From a virus, in the IMG/VR virus record IMGVR_UViG_3300044643_000612, positions 20,338 to 84,337 of that record: DNA of 64,000 bases. One strand, given 5' to 3'. The notes under the pieces were generated by a model. The model searched no databases and was not told the DNA's origin. It was given only the letters and a program-made list of their open reading frames with translations. The first letter of the stretch is position 1. Each line of letters opens with the position of its first letter. The position numbers were made by a program, and so were the translations under genes. This document shows, piece by piece, positions 4,224-47,143 of this stretch.

Positions 4224-4717
4224 CTGGACCGCTTTGGTACCGCGTAGCTGGGAAGCAGATCGGCGTGAAGGAGATCCCCGGCGCCAAGTCCAATCCGACG
4301 ATCATGTCGTGGGCCAAGGCCCTCGGCGCGAAACTCGGCATCGCCTACACGAATGATGACACACCCTGGTGCGGCGTGTTCGTCGGCTACTGCGTGCAGG
4401 CCGCGGGCTTCAAGCCCCCGCCCATAGCCGTGCGCGCCAAGGCGTGGGCGACGTGGGGTGAGCCGCTCATCACCCCGACGCTCGGCTGCGTCCTCGTGTT
4501 CGAGCGCCCGGGCGGCGGGCACGTCGGCTTCTACGCCGGCGAGACGACCACCGCCTACCGCGTGCTCGGAGGCAACCAGTCGAACAGCGTCAACTACGCC
4601 TGGCTGGCGAAGGACCGCTGCATCGCCATGCGCTGGCCGGACAACAGCGCCCCCATCGTGCCTACGCGCGTCGTGGGGTTCACCGAGCCGAAGCAGGTCT
4701 CAACCGACGAGGCTTGA
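4220..4717 (+). CDS. Endolysin, TIGR02594-type (CHAP/NlpC-P60-like peptidase)
   Basis: DDTPWCGVFV, GHVGF and VLGGNQ motifs. SD GGAGG before GTG at 4220. Confidence 0.85.
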   Translation: MTGPLWYRVAGKQIGVKEIPGAKSNPTIMSWAKALGAKLGIAYTNDDTPWCGVFVGYCVQAAGFKPPPIAVRAKAWATWGEPLITPTLGCVLVFERPGGGHVGFYAGETTTAYRVLGGNQSNSVNYAWLAKDRCIAMRWPDNSAPIVPTRVVGFTEPKQVSTDEA

Positions 4718-4804
4718 CCCCTCGCGCTGATAGGCTATGCTCCTGTTCTCACGCTTCGGCGTGGGTGGCGTCCTCGACAACCCTCACGGCTTCGGGCGTG
4801 GGGC

Positions 4805-4839
4805 GCAGGGCCGGGGGAAACCTCGGCCCTTGCTTTTTG
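4805..4839 (+). terminator. Intrinsic terminator after the lysis module
   Basis: AGGGCCGGGG-GAAA-CCTCGGCCCT stem-loop followed by TGCTTTTT. Confidence 0.7.
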
Positions 4840-5205
4840 TGGCGGTGCGGGGCATAGTCCCCTTGTTGGACGGTTTACACCAACTCTCTTTTCTACCGGA
4901 TCGCCACAATCCACCCTCCCGCCCACGGCTAGCGCAGGCCAAGTGCCGGGAGATACGCCACCGACACGCAGAAGGTCGGGGTTCTACAACTCAGGGGCCG
5001 GGGGAAACCTCGGCCTCAGCCATTTGTGGCCCACCTAGCTGATCCACAACCTCCTCACACACTCCCTGCGTCACCTAGGTGGCCCATAACCGTATGCCCT
5101 TCCCCTGCGCTTTCCTTCTCCGGGCTGCCGTGATACACTCTTCGGACTGACGGTCGAGGCCCAAAAAAGGGCTGCGGCGTCCATCAGCCCCCGACACGGT
5201 GCTTC

Positions 5206-5859
5206 ATGGCGACGACGACCACCTTCACGACCCTCAAGGCCGATGTGCAGCGATACCTGGAGCGCGGATCCACGCTCGGTAACGACCCGGTAATCATCGA
5301 GCAGCTTCCCCGCCTCATCAACCTGGCCGAGCGGCGCATCGCCCGCGAACTCAAGGTGCAGGGCTTCATCAACGTCGTCACCGGCACCCTGACGCCCAGC
5401 CAGTCCGTCTACGCCAAGCCCGACCGCTGGCGCGACACCGTGTCGATCAACATCGGCACCGGACCCGGCAACAGCACCCGCAAGCAGGTGTTCTCCAGGG
5501 CCTACGAGTATGTCCGGCAGTACTGGCCCAACGAGGGCACAACGGGCGAGCCCGTGTTCTACGCAGACTACAACTCCAGCAACTGGTTGTTCGCGCCGTC
5601 GCCCGACGCCGCCTACCCGTTTGAGATCCTCTACTACGAGTTGCCGCCCCTGCTCGACGACGTGGTGCAGAGCAACTGGCTCACCGAGTACGCGCCCCAA
5701 CTGCTGCTCTACGGCACGCTGCTGGAGGCGACCCCCTTCCTCAAGAACGACGAGCGCATCCCGGTTTGGCAAAGCATGTACGACCGTGCTGCCGCCATGC
5801 TCAACGGCGAAGACCTCGCCAAGGTGCTCGACCGCAACTCTGCCCGCAAGGAGGCATAG
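5206..5859 (+). CDS. Head-tail adaptor / tail tubular protein A-like
   Basis: LINLAERRIARELK...NWLTEYAPQLLLYGTLLEA...KNDER pattern typical of podovirus adaptors. First gene of the tail module. Confidence 0.65.
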   Translation: MATTTTFTTLKADVQRYLERGSTLGNDPVIIEQLPRLINLAERRIARELKVQGFINVVTGTLTPSQSVYAKPDRWRDTVSINIGTGPGNSTRKQVFSRAYEYVRQYWPNEGTTGEPVFYADYNSSNWLFAPSPDAAYPFEILYYELPPLLDDVVQSNWLTEYAPQLLLYGTLLEATPFLKNDERIPVWQSMYDRAAAMLNGEDLAKVLDRNSARKEA

Positions 5860-20265: not shown

Positions 20266-20702
20266 GCGATGTGCCTTCCGTCGGTCTTGAGGCGAGGGGG
20301 TTTGGACATGACGAAGGGGGTCTGCTTCGAGTAGACCACCTTCTGGTGCGCCGGGCAGTAGGAGCGGTGCCCCTCGGTGTCGGCGCAGCAGGAATAGATC
20401 CCGTCGTCCTTGACGATGGGGAAGGCGCACTCACCGAACTTGCGCTCGGTCCACAGGCTCATCGGCGAGCCCCGCACCGGCGCGACGCTGACGGGCGGCT
20501 GCACCTTGGGCGGGCGCGGGGTAGCGGGTCTCGCCGGCTTGGCACCAGGTGCCCCCGGCGCCTGACGTCGGAGGCCCATGCGGCGCAGCTTGCCGAGGAC
20601 GGAGTTGCGCGTGGTGCCGAGGACCTTGCTGATCTCCGCGGCGCTCTTGCCCTCGGCCCACAGGCTTTCGAGGGTGTCGGTGTTTTTATCGGTCCAAATC
20701 AT
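20262..20702 (-). CDS. gcrA: GcrA-like transcriptional regulator
   Basis: WTD...LWAEGKSAAEI...TRNSVLGKLRRMGL N-domain and CAFPI...C...SYCPAH C-domain. Confidence 0.85.
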   Translation of the reverse strand: MIWTDKNTDTLESLWAEGKSAAEISKVLGTTRNSVLGKLRRMGLRRQAPGAPGAKPARPATPRPPKVQPPVSVAPVRGSPMSLWTERKFGECAFPIVKDDGIYSCCADTEGHRSYCPAHQKVVYSKQTPFVMSKPPRLKTDGRHIA

Positions 20703-21012: not shown

Positions 21013-22071
21013 TCAGTCCTCCTTCTTATAGCGATATGTCTCGAACCCCGCTGCGGCAAGGGGCAGGCCGACCGACCACTGGGTGCCCTGCGACATGAGC
21101 GCGGCCAGGCCCTGCGCGCTGAACGACACGTCGTCCGCCGTCTCGCAGAGGATCTCGTCGTGGACGTGCAGGACCGGGCTGTAGCCCGCCGCCTCCGCCG
21201 CGAGCAGGCCGGCGGCGAGGACGTCGCGAGCGACGGCCTGTGTCAGGTTCTCCACAAGTTTTCCACCGTATGTGTCCAGCCGCTCCCAGCGTCGGGTGTA
21301 TTGGTTGGTGCCCATGTAGGACAGGCGCCCGTCCTCGTCGACTTGCGGTGACGGGTAGCAGAGGTAGCGGCCTGATGGCAGGCGGGCGCGCAGCCAGCCG
21401 CCGGAGCGCCGGAAGGCAATGCTGCTGGCCCGGTAGACCTCGCCCGGGTTGCTGATGGCGTTGCGGGCGGCGCGCTCGCAGTCATACCAGAACTTGACCG
21501 TCGCCTTGTGCTTCGCGCGCCAAGCCTTGACGATCTCAAGCACTTTGGGTTCGGGCAGGTTGACGCCGTAGATCGCGCCCATAGCAGCGAACGCGCCTAT
21601 ACTGCCCTGAAAACCGCAAGCAAGCTCAGAAACTTTCCCGTTTACTTGCCGCTCGTCCTTGGTTACTTCACTCGGGTCCTTACCGAGGATGCCACCTGCT
21701 GTAATCTTGTAGATGTCGTGGCCTATACCTGCGTCGAAGTCTTTGAACGCCTCCAGCTTCCACTGCTCGCCGGCAAGCCACGCTAGGACCCGCCCCTCGA
21801 TGTTGGACAGGTCGGCCACGACCAGCTTGCACCCTGGCGCCGCGACGATAGACCCGCGCACCGCACTGGCGCACAACTCCATGACGTCGTCGTAGAACAC
21901 CGTCTCGACGCCCGCCTTCATGGCCTCGATGCCGAGGTCGATCTGCGGCTGCTTCAGGGTCGGTCGCGGCAGATTTTGGGGCTGGAAAATGCGCCCTGAG
22001 TTGGAGACGATGCGCCCGTTCGCCATGAAACGGTTGCGCGGGCCGGCGTTCACGATGTCATACGTCCGCAC
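21013..22071 (-). CDS. Family-A DNA polymerase C-terminal part, led by a 24-aa split-intein C-fragment (IntC)
   Basis: GTG at 22071 with SD CGGAGG 7 nt upstream. MRTYDIVNAGPRNRFMANGRIVSN|SGRIFQPQNLPR, followed by PolA motifs DLSNIEGR, KVSELACGF and HVHDE. Confidence 0.85.
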   Translation of the reverse strand: MRTYDIVNAGPRNRFMANGRIVSNSGRIFQPQNLPRPTLKQPQIDLGIEAMKAGVETVFYDDVMELCASAVRGSIVAAPGCKLVVADLSNIEGRVLAWLAGEQWKLEAFKDFDAGIGHDIYKITAGGILGKDPSEVTKDERQVNGKVSELACGFQGSIGAFAAMGAIYGVNLPEPKVLEIVKAWRAKHKATVKFWYDCERAARNAISNPGEVYRASSIAFRRSGGWLRARLPSGRYLCYPSPQVDEDGRLSYMGTNQYTRRWERLDTYGGKLVENLTQAVARDVLAAGLLAAEAAGYSPVLHVHDEILCETADDVSFSAQGLAALMSQGTQWSVGLPLAAAGFETYRYKKED

Positions 22072-22975
22072 TGGCGAGCCTCCGCTTGGCCGCCGCAGCC
22101 GCACGGCGCTGCGCCCCAACTTCGGCGCGACGCTCCGGCGTCCAGTAGGCGATGAGCGCCTCCTTCTGGCGCCGCTTCCGCTTATCGTGGTCAATGCGCT
22201 CCCGCGCCGCGGCAAGTTGTGACTGTCGTTCGGCACGCTGCTCGTCGGGCAGTTGAGCGTTGAAAGCCACCAGGCTCTCCGAGATTTTGACGCTCACGCC
22301 CGCGACCTGTTCAGGGGTGCGTGCGTCCCACACCTTCTTTGCCCGCGCGCGGGCCGCACGCCTGGCTTTCAACTTTTCAGACGGCGTGCGCTCCGCAAAG
22401 TGTTTCAAAAGCCGTTCACTCTGCGCCTTGCGGTCCTCGTCGGTCCACGCCTTGGGGTTTACGTTTTTGCGTTCGGCTTTCAAAGCCAGCCGCAGGTTCC
22501 GACGCGCTATGCGGTACGCCTCGCGCGGGTTGGCCAACCGCCAGTCTCGGGCTAGCGCCGAGAGTTCGGCGGCGTGTGCCTGATGCGCTTCACTCTCGCG
22601 GCAGCCCCGGGAAAGCGCCGCGCGGTAGGCGGCTTCCCACGCCGGGTCGCGGCGAAGTTCTGCGGTGGCCGAAACCCCTGCGGGGCCGTCAAACGCCCCT
22701 CCAGGTGACAGGTTGTACGGGCTGACCAGCGCCGCGATCTCTTCGATCTCGGCGACAAAAGCCTCCTCAAGCGTGTCGCATGTCCGCAAGACCTCGATGG
22801 TGAACGCCTGCGCGCCGTACTTGCGGATAGCCGCACAGAATGGGTGGTGCGCGCCCTTGGCCGCGCGCCGCACATGCTGCCCCCAGCGAACCTGTAGCGG
22901 TTGAGACGTGAGACCGGCGTAGCTGCGCCCGCTAGGACTGGTCAGCCGGTAAATCGTGTAGCGTTCCCTCTCCAT
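22058..22975 (-). CDS. GIY-YIG homing endonuclease
   Basis: TIYRLTSPSGRSYAGLT...RWGQH...AIRKYG...E...YN GIY-YIG core with a basic helical C-terminus. Overlaps both polymerase halves. Confidence 0.85.
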   Translation of the reverse strand: MERERYTIYRLTSPSGRSYAGLTSQPLQVRWGQHVRRAAKGAHHPFCAAIRKYGAQAFTIEVLRTCDTLEEAFVAEIEEIAALVSPYNLSPGGAFDGPAGVSATAELRRDPAWEAAYRAALSRGCRESEAHQAHAAELSALARDWRLANPREAYRIARRNLRLALKAERKNVNPKAWTDEDRKAQSERLLKHFAERTPSEKLKARRAARARAKKVWDARTPEQVAGVSVKISESLVAFNAQLPDEQRAERQSQLAAARERIDHDKRKRRQKEALIAYWTPERRAEVGAQRRAAAAAKRRLASADV

Positions 22976-24174
22976 AGGGGTAGCCCTCTCTGCTTTGCCT
23001 CTCCGAGGGTAACATGTTCTGAAGTTGAAACATACACTTTATGTTCAACCGTCGCACAAACCCCGTCGTGCGTAATCACAGGCTTGTCGCCGGAAAACAC
23101 CACGCCTTCGTGTCGAACCCACGACTCGCCGTCCCACACCAAGTCGTCGGTCGTGACGTCCTCTATGGGCCGCTCCAAGATGCGTCCAGTGTCGTCCTTG
23201 ACCCGGACAAGTGTGCCTTCCGCCAAGCAGAAACGCCCCGTGCGAGACGCCCCGGCGTACTGCATGGTGCCCCGCAGCCGCCCGTCGGACGAGGTGCCGC
23301 GCACCAGCACCCGGTACTTGGCCGGGCTGGTCGCGGCTGCTTGCAGGCGCACCTCCAGCAACTCGCGCACATCGTCCGGCACGTCGGTCTTGAGCAGGGC
23401 GCCCAGCGTGCCCTTGCGCAGGTCTTCAATCTCAAGGCCCATCGCCTCGCGCAGGTAGCCGATCAGGGCGTCCCGCTGCGTGGCGCTGGGCACGGCGCCG
23501 TCCGTCATGCGCGCCGACTCCACTGCTAGTCGCTGGCCCGCCTCCTTGGCGGCGCGCAGGGCGGCGTGGGCCAGGTCCATGTCGATCTGGATGCCGCGGT
23601 CGTTGATGGCTTGGTCCAGCCGCCACACGGCCTTCTCGGCGTCGGTCCAGTTGACCTTGGGCTGGCGAGCGTAGACCTCGCGCATGGCGACGATGTCCAT
23701 GCGGGCATATTCCTTGAACGCCTCCCACTCCGCCGGATGCGTCTCTTTCGTGGCCCGGCGGATCTTGCGCGTCTTGGCCTGCGGCTTGCAGAACAGTTGG
23801 ATCAGCTTCTTGCCCGCCTTGTCCTTGGCCTTGTCCAGCGGGACGCCGAGGACCTCGCACTGTTTATCAAGGGCGCCCGGCAGGCTGTGCAGCAGGCCCA
23901 CGGCGAGGGTGTCGTAGATGCGCTCAACGGGCACACGCACCTGACTGAACGACAGGACCGTGCGGTCGAAGTGGCTGTTGTGAATGATGATCCGGTCGGC
24001 AGCGTCGATGAGCGACTGCATCATGCCGGGGGCCGGGAACTCGACGACCTGGACCTCGTCGTCGTCCCATGCGTAGGCCAGCAGCAGGATCTCCGCGCTC
24101 TCCGCATAGGCCCATGTGCCATGCGTGATCGGCGTCTCGCTGTAGGTTTCGAGGTCGAGCATGAGTGTGCGCAT
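22942..24174 (-). CDS. Family-A DNA polymerase N-terminal part (3'-5' exonuclease) ending in a 95-aa split-intein N-fragment (IntN)
   Basis: DLETYS, HNSHFDR and YARMD exonuclease motifs. ...ASRTGRF|CLAEGTLV...TVEH (intein blocks A and B, C1 codon at 23227-23229), then TGA. Confidence 0.85.
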   Translation of the reverse strand: MRTLMLDLETYSETPITHGTWAYAESAEILLLAYAWDDDEVQVVEFPAPGMMQSLIDAADRIIIHNSHFDRTVLSFSQVRVPVERIYDTLAVGLLHSLPGALDKQCEVLGVPLDKAKDKAGKKLIQLFCKPQAKTRKIRRATKETHPAEWEAFKEYARMDIVAMREVYARQPKVNWTDAEKAVWRLDQAINDRGIQIDMDLAHAALRAAKEAGQRLAVESARMTDGAVPSATQRDALIGYLREAMGLEIEDLRKGTLGALLKTDVPDDVRELLEVRLQAAATSPAKYRVLVRGTSSDGRLRGTMQYAGASRTGRFCLAEGTLVRVKDDTGRILERPIEDVTTDDLVWDGESWVRHEGVVFSGDKPVITHDGVCATVEHKVYVSTSEHVTLGEAKQRGLPLWRGNATRFTG

Positions 24175-41271: not shown

Positions 41272-41509
41272 GGAGGTTCACGCCGGGAGACTGTACCGGG
41301 TAAAAAAGACTAAACTTAGCGAGTATGATTTCGTAAAGGGCGGCGGACATCTGTGGGTAGCAGAAGAGTCTGGAAACCTAATGTCGGGGAACGTTTACGT
41401 CGCAAAGGCCTACTTGTTTCGTTCTGTGGCTACTGGAGTAGTCATTCGCGCGAACGGAATACTTTTTGACTCTCTTGGGCTGGAGGAAGCCGATGGCGGC
41501 GACACCTGA
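41261..41509 (+). CDS. Hypothetical protein
   Basis: SD GGAGG. In the operon chain. Confidence 0.5.
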   Translation: MKVKEVHAGRLYRVKKTKLSEYDFVKGGGHLWVAEESGNLMSGNVYVAKAYLFRSVATGVVIRANGILFDSLGLEEADGGDT

Positions 41510-41801
41510 GAAGAAGGTTAAGGCCCGGGTGGAGGCCATGCTCAAGGCGAAGGGGGTTTACTATTTCTTCCCGGCTACGCATGGTTACGGGCGGAGCGGA
41601 GTCCCTGACATCATCGCCTGCGACCGGGGACGGTTCCTCGCCATAGAGTGCAAGGCTGCGGGGGGTAAGCTTACGGCGCTACAGGAGCGGGAGATTACCC
41701 GTATTAGAGTAGAAGGCGGCGTGGCACTCGTCATCCACGAAGACAACTTCCACGAGTTAGAGCAAGCGTTAGAGCAAGCGCTGGAGTATACATGCCTTTA
41801 A
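41493..41801 (+). CDS. VRR-NUC domain nuclease
   Basis: TPEKKVK, SGVPDII, IECKA and LQ motifs. Confidence 0.85.
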   Translation: MAATPEKKVKARVEAMLKAKGVYYFFPATHGYGRSGVPDIIACDRGRFLAIECKAAGGKLTALQEREITRIRVEGGVALVIHEDNFHELEQALEQALEYTCL

Positions 41802-44500
41802 TTGTCTGCGATTTCGAAACATATTACGACTCCGACTTCAGCCTGTCTAAGATGACGACGGAGGAATACATCCGAAGTCCTCGGTTTGAGGTGATCGGCG
41901 TAAGTGTAAAGGTGGATAGCGAGCCGCCCCGGTGGTTCTCCGGTACCATGCCTGACATTCAGAAGTGGCTCCTGCGCTTCCCGTGGGAAACCTCCATCGC
42001 CGTGGCGCACAACGCTGCCTTCGACATGGCCATCCTGAACTGGAGTTTTGGCATTATCCCGGCGAGGATCGCGGACACGCTCTCTATGGCTAGGGCGATA
42101 GACGGACCGGATGCAGGCAACAGCCTCGCCAAGCTGGCAGAGCGCCACGGTCTCGGGGCCAAGGGCAACGAGGTTATCAACGCGCTAGGCAAACGCCGAC
42201 TGGATTTCTCCACGGCACAGCTGGCGGCTTACGGCGAGTACTGCTGCAACGACGCCGACCTGACCTACGACCTGTTCCAGAAGCAAGTGGCGGGCTTCCC
42301 GCTAAGCGAGCTCCGGGTGATCGACCTAACCATACGCATGTTCACCGAGCCGGTACTGCGACTGAGCCAACCGGTGTTGGACGGCCACCTCACTGAGGTG
42401 CTGGACCGCAAGGCGAAACTTCTCGATGGGTTAGGCGTCTCCACCGAAGCCCTTATGAGCAACGACAAGCTGGCTAAGGTCCTTGCAGACCTAGGTGTGG
42501 AGCCCCCGACTAAGACCAGCCCCACCACGGGCAAAGTGGCTTGGGCCTTCGCTAAGAACGACGAGGGGTTTAAGGCCCTACTGGAACATGAGGACGAGCG
42601 CGTCCAAGCCATTGTGGCTGCGCGGCTAGGGATCAAGTCCACGTTGGAGGAGACCCGGACCGAGCGGTTCATCGACATCTCCAAGCGCGGGACCCTGCCC
42701 GTACCCCTACGCTACTACGCAGCTCACACGGGGCGCTGGGGTGGCGACGACAAGATCAACCTCCAGAACCTGCCGCGCAAATCCCCACTCAAGAAATCCA
42801 TGCGCGCGCCCAAGGGGTTCCTGTTGGTGGACTGCGACTCCAGCCAGATTGAAGCGCGGACCCTAGCTTGGCTGGCCGGACAAGACGACCTTGTCCAGTT
42901 CTTCGAGAAGAACAACGCCGAGATCGCGGCGGGCGTTGCCAAGGCGGACATGCAGTTCGACCCCTACAAGATCATGGCCTCCGGCATCTACGGGGTACCT
43001 GTGTCGGAGGTGACGGACGACATGCGCTTCGTAGGCAAGACAACTATACTGGGTTGTATTGCCGAGGGAACCCCGGTACTAACTGATCGCGGCTGGGTAG
43101 CGATTGAGGAGGTAACTACCTCTGACCGGCTGTGGGACGGAGAGGAGTGGGTATGCCACCAAGGGCTAGTGCAGAAAGGCACCAAAGAAACGTTGAGTCT
43201 TTGCGGGCTTTGGTTGACGCCGGATCACAAAGTGTTGTGCGGGACCCAGTGGCTGCAAGCGCACTCAGTGGTTCAAGACAGAAATACCCTCTCCCAAGCG
43301 TTGGATACAGGAGCGGTCAGCTGGTTGTGTCCGGATACGTCAAAGGGCCAAGGAGAGGGGTACTATCCATCATCGTGCGGTGCGACTGCGGGTTCCCAGA
43401 ATACACCGTTGATAGGCACAACTTCAAGGACTTCAAAAGCACCCGATGCCCCCTCTGCGGTAGACGGGAAGGACACCGAAAACGTTATTGGAAGTATATA
43501 TCGGCGCTCCCCGACACTGCGCACCGAGAGCGACTGCTCAACCGACTATCGGCTGCTATCAGCCGCTGCCACGCACCCAATAACCGGATGTACGCAGACT
43601 ACGGAGGTAGGGGTATCGCAGTATACAAACAGTGGAGAGCTGACCGCGCCGAGTTCCTACGGTACGTCCAAACAGTGTCCGGGTGGGACAACCCAGAGTT
43701 CGATATGGACCGTACAGACAACAACCGGGGGTATGAACCCGGAAACATCCGGTTTGTCTCTAGGGCGGAAAACCACGCCAACCGAAGAAAGGTCAGCATT
43801 CTCCAGACGGAACTTGATGACCTACGACATCGCCTACGCCGGGCCGAGGAACAGATACACAGTTGCGACGGATGCCGGTCCAATTATCGTTCATAACTGT
43901 GGCTACGGCATGGGAGCAGCGAAGTTCCAAGGCCAGCTCAAAAACTTCAACGTGGATATGGACCTTGAGGAGTGTAAGCGGATCATCACTGTGTACCGAC
44001 GCACCTACCCGCGCATCGTGGAGTTCTGGGACAAGGCCGACATGGCACTGGAAGCCATGATGCAGGGGATGACCGCCCCTCTGGACGACCACGGGGTTTT
44101 GCTCGTTGGGAAGGACAACTCCATCCGGCTGCCGAACTCCCTGCTTCTCCGCTACGACAATCTCCGTAAGTGGGTGGACCCCAAGGATGGCAAGACGCGG
44201 ACCATCTACGACACCAAGAAGGGCAAGAGCATTGTGCCCAAGTCCACTTGGGGCGGCGCGGTCACGGAAAACGTCTGTCAGGCGGTGGCTAGGATCATCA
44301 TCGCGTGGCAGATGCTGAAGATCGCGGAGAAGTACAAGGTCGCCATGACCGTCCACGACAGCGTGGTCGCCGTGGTTCCGGAAGCCGAGGCCGACGAGGC
44401 CCGCAAGTATATAGAGACGTGTATGCAAGCCCGCCCACCGTGGGCTAAGGGCTTGCCCCTTAACTGTGAGAGCAAGATGGGAGAGACCTATGGCGGATGA
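41792..44500 (+). CDS. Family-A DNA polymerase containing a 281-aa intein in motif B
   Basis: DFETYY, HNAAFD, TGRW, NLQNLP, DSSQIEAR, KTTILG|intein|CGYG and VHD motifs. Confidence 0.92.
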   Translation: MPLIVCDFETYYDSDFSLSKMTTEEYIRSPRFEVIGVSVKVDSEPPRWFSGTMPDIQKWLLRFPWETSIAVAHNAAFDMAILNWSFGIIPARIADTLSMARAIDGPDAGNSLAKLAERHGLGAKGNEVINALGKRRLDFSTAQLAAYGEYCCNDADLTYDLFQKQVAGFPLSELRVIDLTIRMFTEPVLRLSQPVLDGHLTEVLDRKAKLLDGLGVSTEALMSNDKLAKVLADLGVEPPTKTSPTTGKVAWAFAKNDEGFKALLEHEDERVQAIVAARLGIKSTLEETRTERFIDISKRGTLPVPLRYYAAHTGRWGGDDKINLQNLPRKSPLKKSMRAPKGFLLVDCDSSQIEARTLAWLAGQDDLVQFFEKNNAEIAAGVAKADMQFDPYKIMASGIYGVPVSEVTDDMRFVGKTTILGCIAEGTPVLTDRGWVAIEEVTTSDRLWDGEEWVCHQGLVQKGTKETLSLCGLWLTPDHKVLCGTQWLQAHSVVQDRNTLSQALDTGAVSWLCPDTSKGQGEGYYPSSCGATAGSQNTPLIGTTSRTSKAPDAPSAVDGKDTENVIGSIYRRSPTLRTESDCSTDYRLLSAAATHPITGCTQTTEVGVSQYTNSGELTAPSSYGTSKQCPGGTTQSSIWTVQTTTGGMNPETSGLSLGRKTTPTEERSAFSRRNLMTYDIAYAGPRNRYTVATDAGPIIVHNCGYGMGAAKFQGQLKNFNVDMDLEECKRIITVYRRTYPRIVEFWDKADMALEAMMQGMTAPLDDHGVLLVGKDNSIRLPNSLLLRYDNLRKWVDPKDGKTRTIYDTKKGKSIVPKSTWGGAVTENVCQAVARIIIAWQMLKIAEKYKVAMTVHDSVVAVVPEAEADEARKYIETCMQARPPWAKGLPLNCESKMGETYGG
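43055..43897 (+). mobile_element. Contiguous intein (C1...HN, +1 Cys)
   Basis: CIAEGT block A, TPDH block B, TYDI...IIVHN blocks F/G. Removing it restores KTTILGCGYG. Confidence 0.9.
43153..43896 (+). CDS. HNH-type homing endonuclease overprinted in an alternative frame within the intein
   Basis: VRCDCG, CPLC, RCH.P....Y..YGGRGI and DRTDNNRGYEPGNIRF....N..NRR motifs. SD GAGGAG 5 nt before ATG 43153 (alternative start GTG 43249). Confidence 0.8.
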   Translation: MPPRASAERHQRNVESLRALVDAGSQSVVRDPVAASALSGSRQKYPLPSVGYRSGQLVVSGYVKGPRRGVLSIIVRCDCGFPEYTVDRHNFKDFKSTRCPLCGRREGHRKRYWKYISALPDTAHRERLLNRLSAAISRCHAPNNRMYADYGGRGIAVYKQWRADRAEFLRYVQTVSGWDNPEFDMDRTDNNRGYEPGNIRFVSRAENHANRRKVSILQTELDDLRHRLRRAEEQIHSCDGCRSNYRS

Positions 44501-44978
44501 ACCGCAACTGCACGACCTGACCAAGCTGCTACTGACGCGGCTGGAGAGCAACCCGGAGGAGTTCAGCAGAGAGAGCCACTTGAAGGCGTACAAGTGGCAC
44601 AAGGCCGTCGAGACGGTGCGTGAGCACGGGGCCAAGGCGGACAAGGAGACCCTGAACGCCGCCCTGCACAAGTTCCAAATGGACGAGGCGCACGTAGATG
44701 CGTTGAAGCTGCTTATGAATGGGGACGGGGACGGTGTAGCTCTTAGGTCTACCAAACACCCGACCGGTTACGCTGCTGGGCTATCGGGTCATACGCCCGG
44801 AAACGCTGGTAACGGTGGTCCCGGCGGAATGAACGTTAATATAGGTCCATACAGCCCCCGGAACCTGACGCCGGAAGAAGCGCTAGCGATAATTCAAGCC
44901 TCGCCGCAGCCACTGAGCGTTCCGACTACCAACGCACTCACGTCATTCGGGCAAATCAAAAAGAGGCTAGGGCTATGA
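44490..44978 (+). CDS. Hypothetical protein
   Basis: LLLTRLESNPEEF N-terminal motif. Overlaps the polymerase end. Confidence 0.6.
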   Translation: MADEPQLHDLTKLLLTRLESNPEEFSRESHLKAYKWHKAVETVREHGAKADKETLNAALHKFQMDEAHVDALKLLMNGDGDGVALRSTKHPTGYAAGLSGHTPGNAGNGGPGGMNVNIGPYSPRNLTPEEALAIIQASPQPLSVPTTNALTSFGQIKKRLGL

Positions 44979-46681: not shown

Positions 46682-47143
46682 ATGGTCGAGCGTGCTCCTA
46701 AGGCGTGTAAGGTGTGTGGTGAGGACTTTATCCCCCGCTCCGTTTCGCACCGGTACTGTGGAGACGCCTGTCGGGCGCAGTGGCATCGGATCACATTCCA
46801 GTCCACGGAATACCAGTACCGGACCATAAGCGGCGACTGGCATAGGTACTTTGTCCGGCTCTGCAACAGCAAAGAACGCAAAGGGGTCATCACCCCACAA
46901 GACTGTATAGAGATACTTAACCAGCAGCAGGGGCGCTGTGCGCTTTCCGGAGAAACCCTAACCTGCCGCCTCGAACGGGGAACCCTCCAGCCTACTAACG
47001 CCAGCCTCGACCGCAAGAATCCCGGTGGTAGCTACCGCCCGGAAAATATACAGTTGGTCTGCGTCGTGCTAAACAGTTTCAGGGGCGCGACCCCCCTCAA
47101 CGAGTTCATCAGCTGGTGTAAGAAGGTAGCCGCCAATGGCTAA
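46682..47143 (+). CDS. HNH-like endonuclease with N-terminal Zn finger
   Basis: CKVC...YCGDAC, then QQGRCALSG...SLDR...Y..ENIQLVC...N motif. Confidence 0.75.
   Translation: MVERAPKACKVCGEDFIPRSVSHRYCGDACRAQWHRITFQSTEYQYRTISGDWHRYFVRLCNSKERKGVITPQDCIEILNQQQGRCALSGETLTCRLERGTLQPTNASLDRKNPGGSYRPENIQLVCVVLNSFRGATPLNEFISWCKKVAANG

Follow-up and report, generated by a model that had tools for sequence, protein, structure and literature searches.

A family A DNA polymerase (PolA) gene of a virus in the IMG/VR collection was found to carry an intein whose DNA is read in two frames of the same strand. The DNA analysed, 64,000 nucleotides corresponding to positions 20,338 to 84,337 of record IMGVR_UViG_3300044643_000612, is referred to here as the window, and all coordinates are those of the window. 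The arrangement is likely to represent a mobile class-1 intein in polymerase motif B, the homing nuclease of which is a separate gene overprinted at -1 across the loop of the Hint domain. The dual coding itself is almost certainly real and selected.

The polymerase precursor, intein included, is encoded by one open reading frame (ORF) of 902 amino acids (41792-44500, + strand), which matches DNA_pol_A (E=2.7e-25) and the 3'-5' exonuclease family DNA_pol_A_exo1 (E=3.3e-07) of Pfam as well as phrog_17 of PHROG (E=1e-85). The N-extein (41792-43054, +) ends within motif B in ...RFVGKTTILG, and the C-extein (43898-44500, +) begins with the +1 cysteine as CGYGMGAAKF..., the intein being flanked by KTTILG and CGYGMG. 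The intein (43055-43897, +; 281 codons) runs from Cys1 (TGT at 43055) to a terminal His-Asn, with Asn281 encoded by AAC at 43895-43897 and the +1 Cys at 43898. Its splicing motifs in the polymerase frame are those that the earlier note, made from the sequence of the window, had named: CIAEGT at the intein start, TPDH at residues 55-58 and TYDI...IIVHN/C at the end (the slash marks the splice junction). The N-terminal half of the Hint domain (43055-43327, +; residues 1-91) includes block B (TPDH), and the C-terminal part (43799-43897, +) includes blocks F and G (TYDIAYAGPRNRY...IIVHN). Between them lies a linker in the polymerase frame (43328-43798, +; residues 92-248) that is open, unstructured and without protein conservation. 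The description of this middle region as rich in Ser, Thr and Gly is borne out by its composition, 89 of 157 residues (57%) being S, T, G, A or P, versus 32% in the exteins.

The sequence and structural features expected of a class-1 intein were found: the nucleophiles, the terminal His-Asn, blocks B and F/G, the Hint fold, and intein-free alleles at a conserved site. A Cys, Ser or Thr nucleophile at positions 1 and +1 and the C-terminal His-Asn are kept in all 13 parsed loci (the +1 residue is Ser in L003 and L009, two of the related loci described below), and all ten intein sequences compared keep T55, H58, D258, G275, H280 and N281. That the Hint blocks are under purifying selection and that the host gene is essential suggests that the intein is capable of protein splicing.

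The -1 frame, one base upstream of that of the polymerase, is free of stops from 43126 to 43896 (771 nucleotides). The nested gene occupies 43153-43896 (+; 247 codons plus TAA) and matches phrog_374; GTG codons at 43132 and 43147 are alternative starts in the same frame. A Shine-Dalgarno-like sequence, GGAGAGGAG (43139-43147, +), lies within the Gly-Glu-Glu codons of the Hint motif WDGEEWV, with a spacer of 5 nucleotides to the ATG at 43153, and the TAA stop (43894-43896, +) lies within the terminal His-Asn codons (CAT AAC, read as caT AAc). The stop-free frame, the Shine-Dalgarno sequence in the GEEWVC codons, the ATG and the stop had thus all been placed correctly in the earlier note. Nuclease motifs in the nested frame are CDCG (43381-43392), YGGRGI (43600-43617) and DRTDNNRGYEPGN (43708-43746). 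At the place equivalent to the Shine-Dalgarno-like sequence, GGGGAGGA is present in three relatives (L004, L005 and L006), and the end point of the nested ORF is identical in L004, L005 and L007.

Relatives of this element were all found at the protein level; a blastn search of 42900-44100 against the phage collection in distant mode gave no match. A tblastn search with the nested protein matched 681 records of GenBank phages. In the two best annotated of these, EBPR siphovirus 2 (gp51) and Salmonella phage EnJE6 (annotated as an 'intein-containing DNA polymerase precursor'), the match begins 2 mod 3 away from where the polymerase is annotated to start, an offset shared with the window, and Vibrio phage 97.13 has the same layout. 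Scanning IMG/VR with an alignment of four proteins gave 80 loci. Wherever identity to the nested protein is 40% or more (12 sources, namely the window and L001-L011), a nested ORF is present at -1, inside a polymerase ORF of 697-1208 amino acids and between Hint blocks of the form C... and ...HN/C or ...HN/S. The AT-rich locus L069 also has its nested ORF at -1, and a related nuclease is present at +1 in a similar intein in L046 (identical to L049) and L036. Most of the other IMG/VR loci are free-standing ORFs of about 170-290 amino acids that start just ahead of a conserved GxRFGxLxV strand. The survey of layouts leaves out L018, L024 and L044, which have short spanning ORFs (95-263 amino acids), and a spanning ORF of 428 amino acids in L034 was set aside as a product of chance in high-GC DNA, having no Hint motif.

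Two of the +1 cases are in named phages. In Bacteriophage APSE-7 (L164; LR794147.1, 217-3198), a related intein occupies a different polymerase site (GGKS/C...IVHN/CENICQA) with the nuclease at +1, and the polymerase frame has no stops versus 12 expected; Streptococcus phage Javan104 has a motif B intein, likewise with the nuclease at +1. In total, the nuclease is at -1 in at least 17 loci and at +1 in four (L046, L036, APSE-7 and Javan104), and an in-frame nuclease was found at none of the loci examined. A further gene whose product is homologous to the nested protein (identity 29%, E=6e-7) is present at offset +2 in the gp60 methylase of Mycobacterium phage Pacc40 (L167), within an insertion whose open host frame is rich in Ser, Thr and Ala and has no Hint blocks. 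The six annotated records inspected all annotate the polymerase coding sequence alone over the nested match, as had been anticipated in the earlier note for standard gene callers, and that of Salmonella phage vB_SenS-Ent2 (L168) describes the polymerase intein merely as 'encoding splicing domains'. The adjoining helicase gene of Ent2 (4634-5585) is annotated with a second intein, which has an in-frame LAGLIDADG endonuclease; thus this Jerseyvirus holds canonical and nested intein layouts in one phage.

Sequence comparison showed that the two frames are constrained in different parts of the intein. In the core of the nested gene, compared in 10 pairs, the ratio of nonsynonymous to synonymous differences per site (pN/pS) is 0.12-0.45 for the nested frame; the polymerase frame, at 1.05-1.99, behaves here as non-coding DNA would, and the third frame has 1.39-2.23. 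The pairs compared are divergent, synonymous sites being saturated in several of them, and for L001, L002 and L010 the core began about 40 codons early and so includes part of the Hint overlap. Differences in the core concentrate at the third position of nested-frame codons, and the nested frame retains 56-97% amino-acid identity versus 21-87% for the polymerase frame. Elsewhere, the pN/pS of the polymerase frame is 0.01-0.73 in the N-extein, 0.23-0.65 in the N-terminal half of the Hint domain (8 pairs) and 0.04-0.49 in its C-terminal part. Conservation of the middle region thus follows the HNH frame, a point that the earlier note had proposed to test. In a sliding window over six gap-free inteins of 843 nucleotides, constraint shifts from the polymerase frame to the nested frame near 43235-43324 and back near 43775-43864; at the switch the most variable codon position goes from polymerase position 3 to position 2, and later back. 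Selection thus acts in the nested frame over approximately 43270-43810 (+), and therefore the first 40 or so and the last 25 or so codons of the nested gene are dictated by the Hint domain. Over the N-terminal 40 or so codons that overlap the Hint domain, the pN/pS of the nested frame is 0.79-1.25, with no purifying selection of its own.

Chance does not explain why the polymerase frame is open throughout the nested gene. When the nested protein of the window was held fixed and its synonymous codons were redrawn from extein usage, only 13 of the 5000 draws kept the polymerase frame open (P = 0.0026), with a mean of 4.3 stops expected and none observed; the third frame has 9 stops. The same procedure applied to all 12 loci left the polymerase frame open in 0-45 of 5000 draws (P(open) <= 0.009), with 3.3-10.4 stops expected, none observed, and 5-27 in the third frame. 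Five further loci also have no stops and were open in 0-2 of 5000 draws (P <= 0.0004), with 8-20 stops expected in the AT-rich ones; across all loci tested the third frame has 5-28. Thus the polymerase frame over the nested core is kept stop-free by codon choice and is otherwise unconstrained. These loci show the pattern by which out-of-frame endonuclease inteins are recognized: same strand, another frame, an open host frame, purifying selection in the nuclease frame and relaxed selection in the host frame.

Structure predictions made for both frames, a check proposed in the earlier note, divided the intein in the same way. For the nested protein (alignment of 45 sequences), AlphaFold gave a mean predicted local distance difference test score (pLDDT) of 91.6. 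For the intein in the polymerase frame (alignment of 10 sequences), residues 1-91 and 249-281 were modelled with confidence, with block means of 74-92 overall (74-92 in the N-terminal and 80-91 in the C-terminal part of the Hint domain), and residues 92-248 had pLDDT below 50 throughout and no secondary structure. The ten top Foldseek matches of the confident parts of the intein (residues 1-91 and 249-281) are all inteins (mini-inteins), with probabilities of 0.99-1.00 and E values of 3.7e-3 to 1.1e-2, and a profile of the intein matched the Mtu RecA intein in the PDB (E=1.7e-4); no family for the intein as a whole was found in Pfam or NCBIfam. The proposal that a nested gene of its own encodes the nuclease, with the linker in the polymerase frame a by-product that need only stay open, is supported by frame-specific purifying selection, the conserved start, the selected absence of stops and the opposite AlphaFold confidence of the two frames; this evidence is evolutionary and structural, translation of the nested gene being inferred.

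The existence of two frames could in principle reflect an in-frame nuclease displaced by two sequencing errors, or a dying endonuclease put out of frame by compensating indels, and nothing apart from the two frames favours such an origin. The full stretch is present in 20 lake-water metagenome runs, and contigs of all four runs compared (2020, 2023, 2024 and 2024) span 42900-44100 without a gap and agree with the window at every position, although the source sample may be among those runs. A stronger argument against an artefact is that the arrangement recurs in independently assembled genomes, with the same offset in at least 17 loci. The nested frame is under purifying selection with its start codon kept; no stops or frameshifts interrupt it at any of the 21 nested loci examined, stops there being an outcome that the earlier note had named as damaging to its claim; and no in-frame relative was seen among the loci examined, with a Hint domain in none of the six longest nested-frame ORFs. 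Compensating indel errors thus find no support; an artefact is refuted and decay was rejected, the two together having next to no probability. In one run, X8, a low-depth contig of 151 nucleotides matches the window at 43892-43929 (the junction of intein and C-extein) with 3 differences and has different flanks; it probably stems from a second allele of the intein that has diverged and is present in that sample of lake water.

The start of the nested gene is tied to conserved codons of the Hint domain. In 10 of 13 loci an ATG lies at the invariant Trp of WDGxEW, formed from the last base of the preceding codon and the TG of TGG. The window, L004 and L005 instead have GTG or TTG at the Trp position; in these and in L006 an ATG lies two codons downstream, where it spans GTA TGC (Val-Cys) and follows GG(A/G)GAGGA(G). 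The ATG at the Val-Cys junction is also kept in L108, L113 and L119, and a start codon drawn from the Trp or Val-Cys codons of WDGxEWV(C) is common to divergent polymerases. A consensus scan, which covers few types of phage promoter, found no sigma-70-like promoter on the + strand in 41500-44700. Programmed -1 ribosomal frameshifting would yield a fusion of the N-extein, the N-terminal half of the Hint domain and the nuclease, with a second shift back giving a full intein in frame; in its favour, the frames are on one strand at an offset of -1, and the window contains one X XXY YYZ heptamer (AAAGGGC, at 43342). That heptamer, however, lies 42 nucleotides inside the conserved nuclease core; slippery heptamers occur in just 5 of 13 loci, at unconserved places, and L004 and L005, to which the window is closest, have none; in several loci a stop 1-3 codons ahead of the conserved ATG closes the nested frame; and -1 slippage could not serve the four loci with the nuclease at +1. 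Frameshifting was therefore rejected, its probability being very low. Because slippery heptamers are rare and unconserved and no promoter-like site was found, internal initiation at the nested ATG on the polymerase mRNA appears to be the best reading, and the nested product is probably a free protein made in this way.

The distribution of the intein points to mobility. Among the 80 IMG/VR polymerases closest to the window by N-extein (identity 59-70%), motif B is uninterrupted in 76, which read GKTTILG followed directly by [ACS]GYGMG or GYAMG (73 were called by automatic tags and 3 GYAMG variants by eye). The other four have the intein, and each of the four carries a gene at -1 with 249-269 open codons; the remaining frame of these inteins has 18-28 stops. 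Across polymerase clades, identity is 18-28% in the exteins around the site, 35-51% in the Hint domain and 38-53% in the nested proteins. Because the Hint domain and the nested protein are more alike than the exteins, and because nearly all near relatives are intein-free, the data fit movement of the Hint domain and the nested gene as one unit between divergent polymerases at the same site.

The nature of the nested protein is less straightforward. It matches PHROG families 374, 2081 and 3377, labelled 'HNH endonuclease', with E values of 5.6e-28 (phrog_374) to 8.6e-20, and it belongs to a large family of small phage genes, free-standing and given this label by PHROG. The ESM Atlas yielded only viral clusters without proper names, one of which had been assigned 'Homing endonuclease family protein' automatically (0.92); these were treated as leads only. 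A motif resembling a beta-beta-alpha-metal fold, DRTDNNRGYEPGNIRFVSRAENHANRR (43708-43788, +), was identified by a weak profile alignment to I-HmuI (1u3e, E=0.28), in which D186, N198 and N210 align with D, N and N of I-HmuI. R187, Y194, E195, P196, N198 and N210 are invariant in all 45 sequences and D186 is nearly so; D186, N198 and N210 are candidate metal ligands of the beta-beta-alpha motif.

Several observations, beyond the saturated synonymous sites and the unconstrained first codons mentioned above, weigh against reading the nested gene as that of a translated homing nuclease. The case for translation draws on the conserved ATG and on a Shine-Dalgarno sequence that is strong in the window's clade and weak outside it. 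No Pfam or NCBIfam family matches the nested protein, and no HNH model matches any of the 45 members. The weak I-HmuI alignment (E=0.28) places D-R in the nested protein where I-HmuI has D-H; thus the general-base His that defines the HNH or His-Me finger is absent, with the invariant Arg (R187) in its place. The earlier description of a recognizable HNH nuclease accordingly holds at the level of PHROG and fails at that of curated models and of the general base. Foldseek found no match of the nested-protein model in the PDB at E <= 0.001, and VIA-align gave PacI (3m7k and 3ldy) a Z of 4.8, below the noise guide of Z 8, with a root-mean-square deviation of 3.4-3.5 over 83-86 residues. PacI is the sole nuclease among the structural matches and is aligned over most of its length to model residues 111-212; residues 41-95 of the model gave weak SH3/Tudor-like rows (Z 3-4). 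In addition, a free-standing relative of 351 amino acids (L039, 3425-4477) has a Pfam HNH_3 domain at residues 84-114 (E=1.7e-07) ahead of its YGGRGI...DRxDN module, and in view of this canonical domain the nested-type module may not always be the catalytic part.

The absence of curated HNH models, the weak fold match to a nuclease, the Arg in all 45 aligned members and the pairing with HNH_3 in L039 would all suit a nested gene that is real and selected but encodes something other than a homing nuclease, such as a DNA-binding or regulatory protein or a domesticated nuclease residing in the intein loop. Such a product seems unlikely, without being far-fetched. The intein is sporadic, occurring in 4 of the 80 nearest polymerases, and between clades the exteins resemble each other far less than do the Hint domain and the nested gene, which calls for a mobility function; the candidate metal ligands D186, N198 and N210 are retained. 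Active nucleases of the His-Me group without the His exist, PacI having a tyrosine in place of the catalytic histidine according to the available part of the source (PMC5714182), and the same family constitutes the 'hidden HNH' of an actively spreading methylase insertion in Pacc40, as described in the portion seen of PMC11855218. On balance, sequence evidence favours the nested protein being the homing nuclease of the intein. With Arg in the position of the general-base His, catalysis may by analogy be PacI-like, with a Tyr taking the role of the His, a suggestion that serves as a lead only.

If the nested protein is the homing nuclease, ribosomes would start internally on the polymerase mRNA at the ATG at 43153, directed by GGAGAGGAG, and produce a free nuclease of 247 amino acids that would cut or nick intein-less motif B alleles (DNA coding for KTTILG/CGYGMG); repair of the cut allele would copy in the intein together with the nested gene. 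The polymerase precursor would be translated through the same DNA as a flexible linker of about 157 residues, to be removed with the intein on splicing. The arrangement probably originated when a free-standing endonuclease gene entered a mini-intein, which is the model of Dassa (2009) and of Gosselin (2025), the latter as set out in the available part of bioRxiv 10.1101/2025.01.02.630785.

Endonucleases outside the extein frame of an intein are already in print, so the earlier note's suggestion of an overlooked intein class goes too far: the class is published, as the accessible portions of the sources below show, and what is new here is a different nuclease family and its presence in PolA inteins. 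No report of the nested protein's family inside an intein, or of a nested gene in a PolA intein, was found in the literature searched, although the supplements or figures of the preprints may list polymerase cases. Non-canonical inteins of actinobacteriophages, with the endonuclease in a separate frame or strand, are the subject of a preprint by Gosselin, Arsenault and Gogarten (bioRxiv 10.1101/2025.01.02.630785). As in the window, the inteins in the available part of that preprint are contiguous, the endonuclease is encoded out of the extein frame in the interval that separates the splicing blocks, no structure is recognizable in the in-frame middle, and invasion by a free-standing endonuclease gene is proposed. 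The sole same-strand out-of-frame type given there is an endonuclease VII-like one in 'frame 3', HNH being in frame only, and the host genes are those of actinophages; the inteins described here, in contrast, have a D-R...N...N family (PHROG 374) in both alternative frames and lie in PolA of proteobacterial, Streptococcus and uncultured lake phages.

A cyanobacterial dnaX intein with an out-of-frame LAGLIDADG endonuclease was reported by Phillips, DeSimone and Gogarten (bioRxiv 10.64898/2026.09.14.751524). The part of that preprint available to us shares with the present case an endonuclease ORF (+2) over a disordered middle, a low omega for the nuclease frame alongside a high one for that of the extein, upstream Shine-Dalgarno motifs and intein-free alleles, and in dnaX mini and full alleles coexist; it concerns, however, a LAGLIDADG enzyme in a cellular gene of one phylum, whereas here the family is His-Me-like, the host gene is phage PolA and the start lies in a conserved Hint motif. 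Antisense or alternative-ORF LAGLIDADG inteins go back to Gorbalenya (1998, 'Non-canonical inteins'), as cited in the available text of both preprints (10.64898/2026.09.14.751524 and 10.1101/2025.01.02.630785). The 'hidden HNH' insertions of ShiLan and Pacc40 in phage DNA methylases (Arsenault, Gosselin and Gogarten, Genes 2025, PMC11855218) resemble the nested gene, in the portion of that article seen, in having an out-of-frame HNH, an open host frame and a start a few codons in, and the ShiLan stop lies in a final TAAC, comparable to caTAAc here. Those insertions have, in the same portion, no detectable splicing domain, whereas in the window complete Hint blocks under purifying selection flank the nested gene.

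A bolder proposal, which we regard as doubtful, is that the His-less (D-R...N...N) family is a lineage specialized for overprinting in either alternative frame, and never in frame as it must be a free protein. It would colonize Hint loops at no fewer than two PolA sites as well as methylase loops; its start would be hard-wired in the WDGxEWV of the -1 inteins, making intein and nuclease inseparable; and it would link the unexplained ShiLan and Pacc40 insertions to true inteins and might use a PacI-like tyrosine mechanism.

The arrangement implies that an intein and its putative homing nuclease can be two genes on one stretch of DNA, in many phage lineages. Annotation pipelines label such inteins as splicing-only or miss them, and therefore intein surveys undercount active endonucleases. 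The linker of about 157 residues, apparently selected only for openness, would be a natural case in which another gene determines the sequence of part of a protein. The findings also draw attention to a large phage nuclease family that lacks a curated model and a canonical catalytic His. The carriers include cultured Jerseyviruses of Salmonella, a phage of E. coli and APSE, which makes the system accessible to bench experiments.

In inteins with an in-polypeptide nuclease of the His-Me type, the nuclease is a domain of the intein, whereas here it is a separate overlapping gene. Fractured genes, reportedly described by Dassa et al. in 2009, have an intein split in two, with an endonuclease gene standing on its own between the two parts; like the nested gene, that endonuclease gene lies in the intein loop as a gene of its own, but the host gene is broken into two ORFs, whereas the motif B intein is contiguous because its host frame is kept open. 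The window itself contains such a case. A split intein divides a second family A polymerase (21013-24174, - strand) into two ORFs: an N-intein of 95 amino acids (CLAEG...TVEH) closes the N half (22942-24174, -), the C half (21013-22236, -) starts with ...YDIVNAGPRNRF...VSN/S, and a GIY-YIG gene (22058-22975; Pfam E=4.5e-05) lies between the halves. The N-terminal Hint part of this second intein is 44% identical (E=5e-15) to the motif B intein. The window thus pairs the nested layout with the outcome of a split intein and GIY-YIG gene, providing side-by-side examples for models of endonuclease entry. Elsewhere in the window, a small ORF of 153 amino acids (46682-47143, +) with Cys pairs and ...LDRKNPGGSYRPENIQLVC... 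resembles, as read by eye, a free-standing gene for a nuclease of the His-Me type.

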